DNA from: Candidatus Doudnabacteria bacterium
GTDB lineage: Bacteria > Patescibacteriota > Doudnabacteria > UBA920
Assembly (NCBI GenBank): GCA_038203095.1
Contig: JBBREH010000003.1
Location: 1 to 52,385 of the forward strand
Direction: 5' to 3'
Length of the DNA: 52,385 nucleotides
Shown here: positions 14,551 through 20,086 of the stretch, piece after piece
How positions within the stretch are numbered: position 1 is the stretch's first letter
Layout of the letters: every line of letters starts with the position of its first letter
The notes under the pieces: generated by a model
The model's database searches: none
Seen by the model: only the letters and a program-made list of their open reading frames with translations
What the model was told of the DNA's origin: nothing
Made by a program: the position numbers and the translations under genes

Positions 14551-14736
14551 ATGAAACAAAAAGAATTTTATTTGGTTGAGGAACTGGCAAATCGCCTTAG
14601 GGTTTCCAATATGACCATCTACCGCTACATTAAGGCAGGCAAAATATCAGCTCATAAAATCGGCAAGGAATTTAGAATTACAGACAAAGAGTTTGATAAA
14701 TTTTTAGATAAAGTTAAAACAAAACAAACTGTATGA
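14551..14736 (+). CDS. Excisionase-family (HTH_17/MerR-like) DNA-binding protein
   Basis: FYLVEELANRLRVSNMTIYRYIKAGKISAHKIGKEFRI. Confidence 0.85.
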   Translation: MKQKEFYLVEELANRLRVSNMTIYRYIKAGKISAHKIGKEFRITDKEFDKFLDKVKTKQTV

Positions 14737-16718
14737 AAGAAATAACAGCGGAAACAAAAAAAATTGATTTGCACGAAACCGTTTCTTTATTGGGCGTTTC
14801 AACGGCAACTGTTAGAAACTGGATTAGACACAATTATTTGACCCCCCAAGAAGATAAGGCATTGCTTTTTGATTATGCCCAAGTCAAAGAGCTACAAGAT
14901 AATATAGCAACTGGCAAAGTAGACAGGTTGAATAAAAGAGCAAACAAAAGGAACTCCCAAAATACTTTTATACCAGAGGAATATGCCGATAATTTAGAAG
15001 TTATCAGCATTGTAGAAAAAATTATTAGTGATTTTAACTCCCAATCATACCAATTAAAACCCACATTATTTACAGTAATTCTTAATCTGTTTAAGGTTAA
15101 AAAATTAGTTGATTATTCAAATTGTTTGAATAGTTTTGATATAAAAAATCCGGTAATAAAAAATGAGTTGGATTGGTGGAAAAAAAATTTAGATGGAGAA
15201 TATGATTTTGAAAAGTATGCAGGTTTGTTAAATATGCCCTTGCCCCCAGTAAGTGATATTTTAGGACTTATTTATCAATCTTTAGCGGCAGAGGGCGACA
15301 AAGCCCAAGCAGGCTCTTACTATACCCCAAAAGCTGTTGTTGACGAAATTATTTCAGATTATGTAAGCCCTCAGTCAGTTATTCTTGACCCTTGTTGCGG
15401 GACAGGGCAATTTTTACTTTCGGCTTCAGAAGTCATTGAAAACCCAGCAAACATTTGGGGTTTTGATATTGATGAGCTTGCAGTTAGAATAGCGAGGGCA
15501 AATCTTTTATTAAAATTTAATACTACCAGCTTTGTGCCAAATGTGTATAGGAAAAATACTTTGACTGAATTAGTTGAGGGCAGTTTATTTTCCGAAATAA
15601 ATACACCAAAATTTGATGTTGTCGCCACTAATCCACCTTGGGGTGTTCATTTGTCAAAAATGGATACAGTCCAGTTACAATCCTTATTTCCTCTAATAAC
15701 CTCTAACGAAACATTTTCTTATTTTATTAAAAGGGGCATTAATTTTTTGAAAGATGGAGGAACTCTTGCTTATATATTGCCGGAAGCTATATTAAATATA
15801 AAAACCCACAAAGATATTAGGGCAATAATTTTAAGGGATACGCATATCAAAAGAATAAAGCATTTAAGCCGTATTTTTAAGAATGTTTTTAGTCCTGTAA
15901 TAAGACTGGATGTTGTAAAAGCAAAACCGCAAGGCCTTGAAGAATTAATTGCTGAAAAAGAAAATTCTAAACATAATGTCAAACAATCAAGATTAGCTGA
16001 AAATCAAGATTTTTTGTTTGATGTATTTAATAATAACGATGATGTAGGTATTTTTGATAAAGTCTACAAACACGCCCACACTACCCTAAAAGATAATGCG
16101 GATTGGGCTTTGGGAATCGTAACAGGAAATAATGCCAAATTTTTATTAAAACAAATTGGGATAGGTGCAGAACCAATTTTAACCGGCAAGGATATTAAGC
16201 GATTTATAACAGCTAACCCAATAAATTTTATAAAGTTTGAGCCTGATAAGTTTCAACAAGTTGCCCCAGATTATAAGTATCGTGCTAAAGAAAAACTTGT
16301 ATATAAGTTTATTTCCAAGTATTTGGTATTTTCTTATGACGACAAACAAACTTTAACATTGAATAGCGCAAATATACTCATACCAAAAATACAAAATTAT
16401 CCTATTAAAACAATACTGGCATTATTTAACTCATCTCTTTACCAGTTTTTATATCAAAAAAAATTTGGTGCTATAAAAATCTTAAGAAATGATTTAGAGC
16501 AACTGCCACTCCCTATTATTACCGAAGCTAAACATTTAGAAATTAAGAACCTGATTGATAAGCTGTTAAAAAGAGATGCGGAAGAGCCGGAAAGGCAGTT
16601 GCCTTATGATGAGTTAGATAAAATTATAATGGACATATTTAAGCTGAACGAACTGGAGCAAGGGCATATTAGAAAGAGTGTAAAATTGTCAGAGAAATCA
16701 TTAAATATCACTAAGTAA
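14733..16718 (+). CDS. N6-adenine DNA methyltransferase (TaqI/Eco57I-like gamma class) with N-terminal HTH
   Basis: GSYYTP, ILDPCCGTGQFL (motif I), NPPW (motif IV), TaqI_C-like C-terminus; N-terminal LLGVSTATVRNWIR HTH. Confidence 0.85.
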   Translation: MKEITAETKKIDLHETVSLLGVSTATVRNWIRHNYLTPQEDKALLFDYAQVKELQDNIATGKVDRLNKRANKRNSQNTFIPEEYADNLEVISIVEKIISDFNSQSYQLKPTLFTVILNLFKVKKLVDYSNCLNSFDIKNPVIKNELDWWKKNLDGEYDFEKYAGLLNMPLPPVSDILGLIYQSLAAEGDKAQAGSYYTPKAVVDEIISDYVSPQSVILDPCCGTGQFLLSASEVIENPANIWGFDIDELAVRIARANLLLKFNTTSFVPNVYRKNTLTELVEGSLFSEINTPKFDVVATNPPWGVHLSKMDTVQLQSLFPLITSNETFSYFIKRGINFLKDGGTLAYILPEAILNIKTHKDIRAIILRDTHIKRIKHLSRIFKNVFSPVIRLDVVKAKPQGLEELIAEKENSKHNVKQSRLAENQDFLFDVFNNNDDVGIFDKVYKHAHTTLKDNADWALGIVTGNNAKFLLKQIGIGAEPILTGKDIKRFITANPINFIKFEPDKFQQVAPDYKYRAKEKLVYKFISKYLVFSYDDKQTLTLNSANILIPKIQNYPIKTILALFNSSLYQFLYQKKFGAIKILRNDLEQLPLPIITEAKHLEIKNLIDKLLKRDAEEPERQLPYDELDKIIMDIFKLNELEQGHIRKSVKLSEKSLNITK

Positions 16719-16719
16719 T

Positions 16720-17460
16720 ATGGACTACCTAAAAGAAAAGCTAAATAAGTTGATTGACGAGTTGTCGGCTGATAAGAAAGAAATTATAAGAACGAGGTTG
16801 TCAAACCTTGTTTCGGTTTACCCATTTAATGAGTATGAGTATATTATTTCCTCATTGATGGGATTTGGAAAAATTACTTTAGATGATTATTACGAAATTA
16901 GAGATGAGTATATCGCCCGAAATATGTATCTTTATATTTTTGAAATTGGCTCGCCAAGAGGTTTTGGTGAACAGTGGGCGCAAGGACACTTAAAAGGGTT
17001 AGTGCCAGACCTTATAAAACCTACAAAAAAGGTAGAAAAAAATTATAAAGGTGATTATGATTTGATACTCCCAAAGGATAATAGATTAATTCGTATTGAG
17101 GTTAAGGCTTCAAGAGCAGTAAATAGCGACAGCCTCGAACCACTTTTTGTTAAAGCACTTTCATTTGAGAGCAAGCATCCATTTTGGATGAATTTTCAAC
17201 AAATAAAACCAGCTCATTGTGATGTTTTTGTTTGGGTAGCTGTTTGGCGAGATATAATCAAGTATTGGGTATTATCTTCAAAAGAAGTTGAAAGTAATAA
17301 GTATTATTCAAAGGGTCAGCATAGAGGTAATGTTGGCGAGGGGCAACTACATATCAGAGAAGATAATATAAAAGATTTTCAAATTTACGAAGTAAAATCT
17401 GATGAATTAAAAGAAGCAATCATCAGAGCATACGAAAGGCAGAAAGGTAGCAAAAAATGA
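16720..17460 (+). CDS. Putative type II restriction endonuclease (PD-(D/E)xK)
   Basis: YDLIL...IRIEVKASR and NFQQIKP motifs; directly after the MTase. Confidence 0.65.
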   Translation: MDYLKEKLNKLIDELSADKKEIIRTRLSNLVSVYPFNEYEYIISSLMGFGKITLDDYYEIRDEYIARNMYLYIFEIGSPRGFGEQWAQGHLKGLVPDLIKPTKKVEKNYKGDYDLILPKDNRLIRIEVKASRAVNSDSLEPLFVKALSFESKHPFWMNFQQIKPAHCDVFVWVAVWRDIIKYWVLSSKEVESNKYYSKGQHRGNVGEGQLHIREDNIKDFQIYEVKSDELKEAIIRAYERQKGSKK

Positions 17461-18956
17461 AAACCGTAATTTATTTAAGGGTGTCATCCAAAAAACAGGA
17501 GCAAGAGGGCTTTTCAATCCCCGCCCAAAGGAAGTTACTTTTGGATTTTGCCAGAGCCAAAGGCTTTAAGGTTGTTAAAGAGTTTGAGGATGATGAAACG
17601 GCCAAAAGCGCAGGCCGTGAGCATTTTGGCTTGATGGTTGATTATATAAAAGCCAATAAAGATGTTGAAGCGGTTTTGGTAGAAAAGACAGACCGCTTAT
17701 ATCGCAACTTTAGAGATTATGTAACGATTGACGAACTTGGAATTTCGGTATTTTTGGTTAAGGAAAATGAGGTATTGGGTAAAAATTCATCTTCACACCA
17801 AAAATTTATACACGGCATAAAAGTTTTAATGGCCAAAAATTATATTGATAACCTTAGAGAGGAAAGTGGCAAAGGCCATTTACAAAAAGCGGAAAGCGGT
17901 ATTTATGCAGGCAGTCGCTTGCCATTAGGTTATAAATTTGGCAAGGATGGCGATAAAATTGTGCCTGTAATTGACGAGGCAAACAAAGACTTACCGCTAA
18001 AAATGTTTGAGTATTATGCTACCGGACTTTATTCTTTGAAAAGCCTTATTAAGCGGATTGTAGATGAGGGGCTTGTGCGGCCGGAGCTAATGCCTAAAAT
18101 TTCAAGGCTAACTAAAATGACTAAAAGCACGGCTCACCGGACTTTAAGAAACCCATTTTATTATGGCGATTTTTACTGGAAAGGCACACTCTACCACGGC
18201 ACACAAAAGCGGCTAATAGAAAAAGATTTGTGGAATAAGGTGCAGGAATTGCTTAACCAGACAGACGGCAAGAATGAGCCTAAGCCTAAATATGGCACTA
18301 AGCCGTTTGCTTTTAAGGGCTTACTGATTTGTGGCGAATGTAGTCGCACTGTAACGGCGGAAAAGGTAGTTAAGAAATCTGGCCTAGAATTTGTTTATTA
18401 CCATTGCACAAAATTTGGCACTAAATGCACACAAAAGGCCGTAAACGAAACGCTGTTAGACGAGCATATAATAAGCTCGCTTGAGGGCTTAGAAATGCCA
18501 CAGGACGCTGTTGATTATGTAGCCGAGGGACTTAAGCAGTCTTTGTATTTGAAGCGTAACACAGAGGATAAAACAAGGGAACAGTTAGAGGCTGAAAAAA
18601 ATAAATTACAAAACCGCCTTAGTGTTTTGTATGAGGATAAACTGGACAGGGTTATTAGCGATGAATTTTATAACCAAAAGTTTAACGAGTATTCGGAAAA
18701 GATAAAAGCCTTAGACACGCTTATAAGCAAATACACTTATGCGGACATTGATTATTACCAATTTGGCGTAAAAACTTTAGAACTCGCTAAAACTGCCGCA
18801 ATACTGTATAAAAACGCACTACCGGATGAAAAGCGAGAACTGCTTAACTTTTTACTTCAGAACTCCACATTAAAATCACAAACACCCCAATTTACTTACG
18901 GAAAACCCTTTGACAGGGTGCGTCAAAGGGCGTTAAGTTCCGATTGGAGCGGCTAA
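17457..18956 (+). CDS. Large serine recombinase (integrase)
   Basis: YLRVSS catalytic Ser, EKTDRLYRN, recombinase domain (RNPFYYG), Zn-ribbon (CGEC...YYHC), coiled coil. Confidence 0.93.
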   Translation: MKTVIYLRVSSKKQEQEGFSIPAQRKLLLDFARAKGFKVVKEFEDDETAKSAGREHFGLMVDYIKANKDVEAVLVEKTDRLYRNFRDYVTIDELGISVFLVKENEVLGKNSSSHQKFIHGIKVLMAKNYIDNLREESGKGHLQKAESGIYAGSRLPLGYKFGKDGDKIVPVIDEANKDLPLKMFEYYATGLYSLKSLIKRIVDEGLVRPELMPKISRLTKMTKSTAHRTLRNPFYYGDFYWKGTLYHGTQKRLIEKDLWNKVQELLNQTDGKNEPKPKYGTKPFAFKGLLICGECSRTVTAEKVVKKSGLEFVYYHCTKFGTKCTQKAVNETLLDEHIISSLEGLEMPQDAVDYVAEGLKQSLYLKRNTEDKTREQLEAEKNKLQNRLSVLYEDKLDRVISDEFYNQKFNEYSEKIKALDTLISKYTYADIDYYQFGVKTLELAKTAAILYKNALPDEKRELLNFLLQNSTLKSQTPQFTYGKPFDRVRQRALSSDWSG

Positions 18957-19018
18957 GGGGAATCGAACCCCTGTCCATACCTTGGCAAGGTATTGTTCTA
19001 CCATTGAACCATAGCCGC
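18945..19018 (-). tRNA. tRNA-Gly(GCC)
   Basis: Anticodon arm atacc-ttGCCaa-ggtat; CCA end overlaps the recombinase 3' end. Confidence 0.95.
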
Positions 19019-19072: not shown

Positions 19073-19370
19073 TGGTGCCGGGCCCCAGAGTCGAACTGGG
19101 CACGCCTGCCTCTTCCAAGGCAAAGTTGGACTATATCATCATCCCGCGTTTTCACGAGGGAGCTGGGCGCTGTTGTAGGATTATTGTTGGAACTCACCTA
19201 CTAGTCTCTACGCCTTTTCCGGGAGCTTATTGTCCGCCGGAACTTGGTTCGGGATTGTTCCTGCCATAGGCGGGAGTTTCCCCCGAGTTCACCCAGTTTT
19301 TCTCAATCCGCCTTACGGCGAATGGCCCCAAAGATTTTAGGGCAGCGCTCTACCGATGAGCTAGCCCGGC
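19073..19370 (-). tRNA. tRNA-Phe(GAA), split (exons 19370-19339 and 19115-19073)
   Basis: Spliced 75-nt product has acceptor GCCGGGC/GCCCGGC, anticodon arm CTGCC-CTGAAGA-GGCAG, T-loop TTCGACT and CCA. Confidence 0.9.
19116..19338 (-). ncRNA. Group I self-splicing intron (IC3-like), 223 nt, no ORF
   Basis: P1 GCCCU/GGGGC with U.G at the 5' splice site, P10 UCUUU/GAAGA, P/Q-like GAACUCGGGGGAAAC and AAUCCCGAACCAAG, R UAGAGACUA, S GAUAUAGUCC, terminal G. Confidence 0.9.
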
Positions 19371-19501: not shown

Positions 19502-19576
19502 TGGTGGGCAATGTAGGGATTGAACCTACGGCCTACCCGGTGTAAACGGGTCGCTCTACCACTGAGCTAATTGCCC
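19502..19576 (-). tRNA. tRNA-Val(TAC)
   Basis: Anticodon arm acccg-ttTACac-cgggt; CCA end. Confidence 0.95.
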
Positions 19577-19729: not shown

Positions 19730-20086
19730 TCAAAAAAGTGCTTTTTTGGCAAGACTCTCGCTCAGAGCCGCGAAGGCGTTAATATCATCATTTTCGGAGG
19801 TTTTGCATTTGGTTTCCTGGCCGCAAGTTTGGCATTGGTGAAGAATGTGGTATTTGCCCTTTTGTAGCTCTAAACCGACAGGTTCCATTAGTCCACCGCA
19901 GTCATTGTTGCGGTCGCCGGGGAAGTTATCGACGTGCTTGCTCCATAAGCATTTTGGACAATGGTTGGTATAACCGTTGCCTTTGACTTTTGTCTTGCAG
20001 TGGCCGCATACAAAATTTTCGATTTTCTTTTGGAAAGTTTTTCCGGCGGAGCCGGATCCCGCTCCGCGGGACACATTCTTTTTCAT
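19730..20086 (-). CDS. RNHCP-domain protein
   Basis: FVCGHC...YTNHCPKCLWSKHVD..PGDR...CGGLMEP. Confidence 0.85.
   Translation of the reverse strand: MKKNVSRGAGSGSAGKTFQKKIENFVCGHCKTKVKGNGYTNHCPKCLWSKHVDNFPGDRNNDCGGLMEPVGLELQKGKYHILHQCQTCGQETKCKTSENDDINAFAALSESLAKKALF

Follow-up and report, generated by a model that had tools for sequence, protein, structure and literature searches.

The locus considered here raises the question of how a gene for tRNA-Phe can serve its purpose when its anticodon loop is interrupted by 223 nt, and whether such an interruption is new. The initial annotation of the window (viz. the whole stretch of 52,385 nt that was analysed) described it as a tRNA-Phe(GAA) gene with a group I intron inserted after U33 and yielding a 75-nt product. 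Our analysis confirms that the gene is real and that it is split between U33 and G34, and we consider it highly probable that the insertion represents a true group I intron without an ORF and belongs to the Phe.2Ug class, which occupies this position of tRNA-Phe(GAA) in Patescibacteria and would be spliced by group I chemistry.

The split gene and the structure of its intron

The split gene lies at 19073..19370 on the minus strand, as do all features described below unless stated otherwise, and it specifies a precursor of 298 nt. When ARAGORN is run with introns allowed (-i), the gene is reported as tRNA-Phe(gaa) i(33,223). The 5' exon (19339..19370, 32 nt; GCCGGGCUAGCUCAUCGGUAGAGCGCUGCCCU when read from 19370 to 19339, terminating in ...CUGCCCU) corresponds to tRNA nucleotides 1-33 with position 17 absent, and it contributes the acceptor, the D arm, the 5' strand of the anticodon stem, C32 and, as its last nucleotide, U33. 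The intron (19116..19338) begins with AAAAUCUUUGGGGCC and ends with GAUAUAGUCCAACUUUGCCUUG (...GCCUUG), the final G at 19116 being omega-G, and it is followed by a 3' exon of 43 nt (19073..19115; GAAGAGGCAGGCGUGCCCAGUUCGACUCUGGGGCCCGGCACCA when read from 19115 to 19073), which opens with GAAGAGGCAG, carries the anticodon G34 A35 A36 followed by G37 and A38, and closes with ...CCA. The two exons, when joined, form a 75-nt tRNA-Phe cloverleaf with the anticodon GAA, the discriminator A73 and an encoded CCA, and no alternative exon/intron boundaries give the same product with a U before the 5' site and a G before the 3' site. Both the ARAGORN -i result and the joined exons are thus in agreement with the anatomy originally proposed. 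The usual bacterial residue at position 37 of tRNA-Phe is A37; the present gene has G37 A38 (19111-19112), and these residues pair with the tail region of the intron.

The split gene is absent from the output of default ARAGORN and of the Rfam tRNA model, both of which detect the flanking tRNA-Gly and tRNA-Val genes, and the expectation that standard tRNA scanners would overlook it is therefore borne out. Default tRNA finders make genomes of Patescibacteria seem to be without a tRNA for Phe, and the use of ARAGORN -i or tFind is needed to recover it. The search with a group I intron model that had been proposed as a check gave a match to RF00028 (Rfam) at 19348-19106, which scores 67.3 bits where the gathering cut-off is 50 (E = 5e-15 over the whole window) and covers the full length of the model (positions 1-253). 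The structural hallmarks of group I introns are seen in the insertion, viz. a U.G wobble closing P1 (U33.G), omega-G as the last nucleotide, P10, and a core of P3, P4, P6, P7 and P8 in which P3 and P7 form a pseudoknot.

The individual helices can be placed as follows. P1 (19325..19343; MFE -9.0 kcal/mol) is formed by exon GCCCU and intron AAA with UUUGGGGC, the 5' splice site being marked by the U33.G pair. Within the guide, the 5' portion UCUUU (19330..19334) has exon G34-A38 (GAAGA, 19111-19115) as its P10 partner, and this pairing excludes the extension of P1, the two being alternative partners of UCUUU. P2 (19307..19322) is capped by the GNRA tetraloop GUAA. The strands of P3 are CUGGGUG (19290..19296) and CGCCCAG (19163..19169), and the P4-P5-P6/P6a domain occupies 19213..19286. 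The 5' strand of P7, the G-binding helix, reads G-A(bulge)-GACUA (19202..19208) and has UAGUCC (19128..19133) as its 3' strand, the latter preceded by J8/7 (19134-19141). A P7.1-like hairpin of 27 nt (GUAGG/CCUAC, 19175..19201), with a conserved loop of 17 nt (UGAGUUCCAACAAUAAU), is inserted between P7 and P3', and the P8 hairpin is found at 19142..19161. A P9 inside the intron is absent, as only 12 nt separate P7' from omega-G, and the P9 columns of RF00028 fall on the intron tail and the 3' exon. Inside the intron there is likewise no endonuclease-like ORF, the only mechanical ORFs being of at most 74 codons and overlapping the structured RNA. The unconstrained MFE of the 298-nt precursor is -116 kcal/mol, as compared to -99.6 +/- 5.3 for shuffled sequences (z = -3.1). 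This fold contains the acceptor, D and T arms of the tRNA together with P1, P2, P3, P4, P5, P6, P8 and a hairpin in the intron tail, and P7.1 appears in the centroid structure.

The proposed structure was scored over 59 pairs in a MAFFT alignment of 51 distinct members of the family that lack P9. In this alignment, 96.6% of the cells are paired, whereas shuffles reach 85.5 +/- 0.4% (0/500 as high), and when the partners are slid by 1-3 columns only 36-54% remain paired. Changes on both sides are seen in 28 pairs, and compensatory changes are abundant in P2 (six of its six pairs, with the G and the last A of the loop invariant), P6a (6/6 pairs covary), P7.1 (4/5 pairs) and P8, the outer pairs of which are 89% paired. 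P1, P10 and P7, on which the earlier description had relied, are all present and are 97%, 98% and 100% paired, respectively. In P1, a C-G pair is replaced by G-C in 7 sequences and by A-U in 1, with U.G at the splice site in 51/51, and in P10 U.G alternates with C-G. P6 is also paired in 100% of the sequences. P3, P4 and P7 are invariant (P3 nearly so) and 100% paired, and hence they give no covariation signal either way. Further, the end of the 5' exon varies over the 107 parsed genes (GCCCU, GGACU, GGCCU, UGCCU, CGACU and others), and the matching guides can be read in the sequences. Because the intron is conserved over about 90 species, these comparisons argue strongly that it is a functional ribozyme rather than a relic.

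Relatives of the intron and the setting of the gene

Relatives were sought with core words of 19-20 nt. The word AAAACTGGGTGAACTCGGGG, which spans J2/3-P3-J3/4-P4, matched 38 JGI/ENA metagenome contigs, and the word AAACTGGGTGAAYTCGGGG matched 111 contigs in genomes of GTDB species representatives; the loci were then analysed with ARAGORN -i and a custom parser. A complete tRNA-Phe(GAA) gene split at U33/G34 was found in 30 of those from metagenomes and in 87 of those from genomes, with introns of 195-336 nt and with U-1 and omega-G in all of them. No viral contig matched the core word. The other genome loci consist of five truncations at contig ends, about 15 chance matches, two tRNA-Leu(UAA) genes and two copies located in an HNH gene of Uhrbacteria. 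The approximately 15 matches outside the CPR (Streptomyces, Marinobacter and others) were set aside, as they represent a chance 19-mer in coding DNA with neither a tRNA nor an intron. The record titles of the relatives are overwhelmingly those of Patescibacteria/CPR, and their lineages include Yanofsky-, Doudna-, Andersen-, Magasanik-, Lipton-, Harrison-, Peregrini- and Kuenenbacteria, Microgenomatus and others.

A dozen or so split-gene loci from MAGs (L044, L048, L063, L069, L097, L100, L101, L116, L120, L131, L134 and L144) carry the label 'uncultured Gammaproteobacteria'. Their exons and introns are nearly identical to those of loci labelled as CPR, e.g. L131 and L089, the latter from a Magasanikiibacteriota MAG, and to judge from these sequences the labels look wrong and are taken here to be unreliable.

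The intron of the present locus is 87% identical to its nearest relative (L018) and 83% identical to L050, the median for the family being 73%. Another locus, L139 (Ca. Yanofskybacteria), has an intron of equal length and was considered as a possible second copy of the same genome, and this was rejected as blastn shows no shared DNA. In other environmental sequences, viz. contigs of public runs, the first 63 nt of the intron hardly vary. The full stretch is present in a single run, that of the DNA sample. Words of the locus recur in six metatranscriptome runs; of the four that were examined, three carry relatives of the intron, which come from other organisms, and the fourth yielded nothing. 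Contigs of this kind cannot tell a spliced tRNA from an intronless gene. Freshwater metatranscriptome contigs from two runs (X25 and X26) contain close relatives of the first ~60 nt of the intron (the boundary being at 19336), and in one of them the 5' exon is different (...GGUAGAGCGUGGUGCUCU|AUAGCAC...), which suggests that the host of this variant is a tRNA with an anticodon starting with CU.

The same core word is also seen in other hosts. In L055 and L142 a tRNA-Leu(UAA) gene is split between U33 and U34 by introns carrying the same 19-nt word. This site differs from the classical position 34/35 and corresponds to the Leu.2Ug class of Williams (bioRxiv 2020, 10.1101/2020.01.27.920355). A further group I intron that is related to the present one and carries the same core word is seen in Ca. 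Uhrbacteria (L099:3895-4487, also L085 and L030; RF00028 64-70 bits). It has no tRNA host and lies in or beside a protein gene, the copy in L099 starting straight after ...CANCHREVHAGV of an HNH-endonuclease-like ORF of 110 codons.

Within the window the intron stands alone, in a gene flanked by tRNA-Val(UAC) upstream (19502..19576) and tRNA-Gly(GCC) downstream (18945..19018), both found by default ARAGORN and Rfam, and the three tRNAs are probably co-transcribed. Upstream of this tRNA-Val/Phe/Gly cluster is a gene for a protein of 118 aa with an RNHCP domain (19730-20086; PF12647, 94 bits) and the motifs CxxC, NHCPxC and CxxC, and a promoter-like site (19752-19724) overlaps the end of its ORF. 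Homologues of this protein (57-78% identity) are found beside the split tRNA-Phe in only the seven closest loci, two of which are from Ca. Doudnabacteria, and due to this restriction the RNHCP gene was rejected as a partner of the intron and is regarded as ordinary synteny. The distribution of these homologues suggests that the host of the intron is a Doudnabacteria-like organism. Downstream of tRNA-Gly, the plus strand carries a large serine recombinase directly adjacent to it (17457-18956), made up of Resolvase, Recombinase and Zn-ribbon domains, as well as an N6 DNA methylase (14733-16718) whose specificity domain is TaqI-like.

In 54 of the 107 loci, a conserved gene for a protein of ~225 aa is found beside the split tRNA-Phe, on either side and either strand (e.g. 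L018:1032-1727, L050, L011 and L131), at a median distance of ~79 nt and mostly within 200 nt. The window holds no copy of it. An N-terminal HTH is the only domain of this protein supported by Pfam, PHROGs and the PDB sequence profile. AlphaFold predicts both the full-length protein and its C-terminal domain with high confidence (pLDDT 90.5 and 91.2), and a Foldseek search of these models against the PDB returned nothing below E = 0.002, with TM values of at most 0.43. A reading of the protein as a LAGLIDADG enzyme found no support, as the profiles show the HTH only and no LAGLIDADG enzyme is among the top 50 Foldseek matches.

These observations bear on the question of whether the intron is a recent acquisition by horizontal transfer, through endonuclease-assisted homing or reverse splicing, instead of an old feature that the lineage has inherited vertically. 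Such an origin would be in accordance with the near identity of the first 63 nt of the intron in contigs whose peripheral helices, and in one case exons, are different, with the HTH gene that accompanies half of the loci, and with the presence in the same samples of intronless tRNA-Phe genes with similar exons. However, the subtype of the intron tracks the type of exon, as 66 of the 67 introns without P9 are found with G37A38 exons and 31 of the 40 introns bearing P9 with A37A38 exons. The guide sequences co-vary with the exons, the nearest relatives of the intron are those sharing the RNHCP neighbour gene, and the window contains no candidate for an endonuclease. We thus consider a recent transfer to be rather doubtful.

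It is also necessary to consider whether the split gene could be a decaying, non-functional copy, the work being done by another tRNA-Phe gene of the same genome that has no intron. A contig from the source sample skips exactly 19116-19338, which could be taken as pointing to such a second gene. However, this contig is better interpreted in another manner, as its depth is only 4 in comparison to 13.2 for the contig of the window, it is less similar in sequence, and the only match of at least 95% in the source sample is the window's own contig; most likely, it represents the intronless gene of another organism. Further, both exons of the split gene are intact and fold perfectly, and the core helices are kept across the ~90 species with the compensatory changes in P2, P6a, P7.1 and P8 described above. 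No uninterrupted tRNA-Phe is found within the window, or in the 778 kb around 107 related loci, in which 279 other tRNAs are present. Based on these results, it is highly improbable that the gene is a decaying copy. If it is the only tRNA-Phe gene, splicing would be needed for all decoding of Phe codons, and these organisms, with their minimal genomes, would depend on catalysis by RNA for a gene which is probably single-copy and essential, a situation already known for the Phe.2Ug class.

Predicted splicing pathway and the absence of P9

In the pathway predicted from this structure, GCCCU of the 5' exon (tRNA nt 29-33) would pair with the guide GGGGC to form P1, in which the U33.G wobble would mark the 5' splice site, and an exogenous guanosine bound at P7 would attack after U33. 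The guide UCUUU would then hold G34-A38 as P10, and omega-G (19116) would replace the exogenous G in the G site. The 3'-OH of U33 would next attack after omega-G, leading to the ligation of the exons into the 75-nt tRNA-Phe and the refolding of the anticodon arm. Throughout these steps, the GNRA loop L2 and a contact between L6 and L7.1 may hold the two domains of the core together in place of L9-P5.

The L6-L7.1 contact is proposed on the basis of the distribution of loop sequences. In most members, the loop of P7.1 reads UGAG-UCCC-AACAAUAAU, and the apical loop of P6 then opens with GGG. The GGG/CCC combination is found in 78 of the 82 distinct sequences with a single hairpin, and the remaining four compensate, as UUCC is matched by GGA in three of them (the present locus, L018 and L133) and CCUC by GAG in the fourth (L150). 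On the other hand, the 11 sequences with other structures at this place (several of which have a P7.2 hairpin in addition to P7.1) have no GGG in the first six nucleotides of the loop. The association of GGG with a single hairpin gives a Fisher p = 2e-11, a value which ignores phylogeny. For the present intron, the proposed loop-loop pairing of 3 bp would involve GGA in the apical loop of P6 (19233..19235) and UCC in the loop of P7.1 (19189..19191).

The second feature is a hairpin across the 3' splice site (19106..19123; MFE -8.8 kcal/mol), in which the intron tail UUUGCCUU pairs with GAGGCAGG of the exon (tRNA nt 37-44) around the loop G(omega)|GAA. In 52 distinct combinations of tail and exon, the best helix has a mean of 6.04 bp, as compared to 5.12 +/- 0.15 for permuted exons (0/2000) and 4.51 for a control using exons of a different stem, and swaps between tail and exon are seen in AUGCUU/GAGCAU, UAUCCUU/GAGGAUG, UUCCUU/GAGGAA and GUGGCUU/GAGCCAU. 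The permutation test supports the existence of the tail hairpin and says nothing regarding its function. The tail hairpin is in competition with P10 as well as with the anticodon stem of the tRNA, the 5' strand of which is partly used in P1. We suggest, tentatively, that in the half of the family lacking P9 the missing P9 and its L9-P5 clamp may be replaced by the L6-L7.1 pairing together with the tail hairpin, whose loop of omega-G and GAA resembles a GNRA tetraloop, and that the hairpin could perhaps act as a switch that withholds omega-G from the G site until the first step of splicing is done.

The absence of P9 is also relevant to whether the intron acts by itself. The Azoarcus intron is stabilised by a tetraloop-receptor clamp between L9 and P5. 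In the present intron, with its 12 nt between P7' and omega-G, such a clamp cannot form; autonomous activity is due to this not guaranteed, and a real intron that depends in the cell upon a protein helper, such as a chaperone or a maturase-like factor, instead of being truly self-splicing could be envisaged. However, the GNRA loop of L2 is conserved, and the covarying L6-L7.1 contact and the stable tail hairpin could stand in for the clamp. Neither an ORF in the intron nor a copy of the HTH neighbour gene in the window is at hand to provide a helper, and group I introns of ~200 nt, such as that of Azoarcus, do self-splice. A requirement for a helper thus appears unlikely to us. As a small, highly conserved ribozyme without P9 and with two candidate contacts in its place, the intron may offer a compact model for studying how the 3' splice site is positioned in group I introns.

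Relationship to known introns of tRNA genes

The intron shares with those of Azoarcus tRNA-Ile(CAU) and of cyanobacterial tRNA-Leu(UAA) and tRNA-fMet, which belong to subgroup IC3, its small size, the lack of an ORF and its location in the anticodon loop of a bacterial tRNA. It also resembles the IC3 introns in the GNRA loop of P2 and in the very similar core sequences of J3/4-P4 and J8/7-P7. However, it is distinguished from introns of the Azoarcus/Anabaena type by its host tRNA and by the extra 27-nt P7.1 with a covarying stem, and as there is no P9 GNRA hairpin inside the intron the L9-P5 clamp is absent. It thus departs from the definition of subgroup IC3 on two points, viz. that P9 has a GNRA loop and that there is no helix between P7 and P3'. 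Nor, with no endonuclease ORF inside, does it have the form of a mobile intron that encodes its own homing endonuclease.

The four sites cited in the initial annotation as classical for bacterial tRNA introns, Leu(UAA), fMet, Ile(CAU) and Arg(CCU), agree with the four classical cases of Williams (10.1101/2020.01.27.920355), viz. Leu.3Ug, Arg.5Ug, fMet.2Ug and Ile2.5Ug, which that work extends to 21; the intron of tRNA-fMet (fMet.2Ug) is likewise located at 33/34. The seed alignment of the same work also contains Asn.4Ug and Asp.4Ug, in agreement with the introns of tRNA-Asn and tRNA-Asp mentioned in the initial annotation. Further, a preprint of Nakagawa et al. (2025), listed among the references of PMC12641178, refers in its title to a 'novel insertion site' in tRNA genes of Patescibacteria; to judge from this title, it deals with an element of the same kind in the same phylum and would likewise point to a site already described.

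The suggestion that the Phe site may be undescribed has to be withdrawn, as Williams lists a class Phe.2Ug with the seed Mba55.Phe.2Ug. The present intron resembles this seed in its tRNA-Phe host, the site 33/34, U-1, omega-G, the helices P1-P8, the short tail and a P7.1 hairpin with the loop ...GAGUCCCAACAAUAAU. Additionally, it is 74% identical to the intron of L051 (Parcubacteria GW2011_GWD2_38_12), which by visual comparison matches the seed Mba55. In the published consensus of Phe.2Ug, the tail is drawn as a small P9, and the drawing has neither an L6-L7.1 contact nor a helix between tail and exon; these two features are of modest added value and may go beyond the published catalogue. Because Mba55.Phe.2Ug has the same site and belongs to the same family, the Phe site is already described since 2020, and it is common in Patescibacteria. 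The locus reported here adds to this class one member, a variant new in sequence, whose identity to the copies recovered does not exceed 87%.
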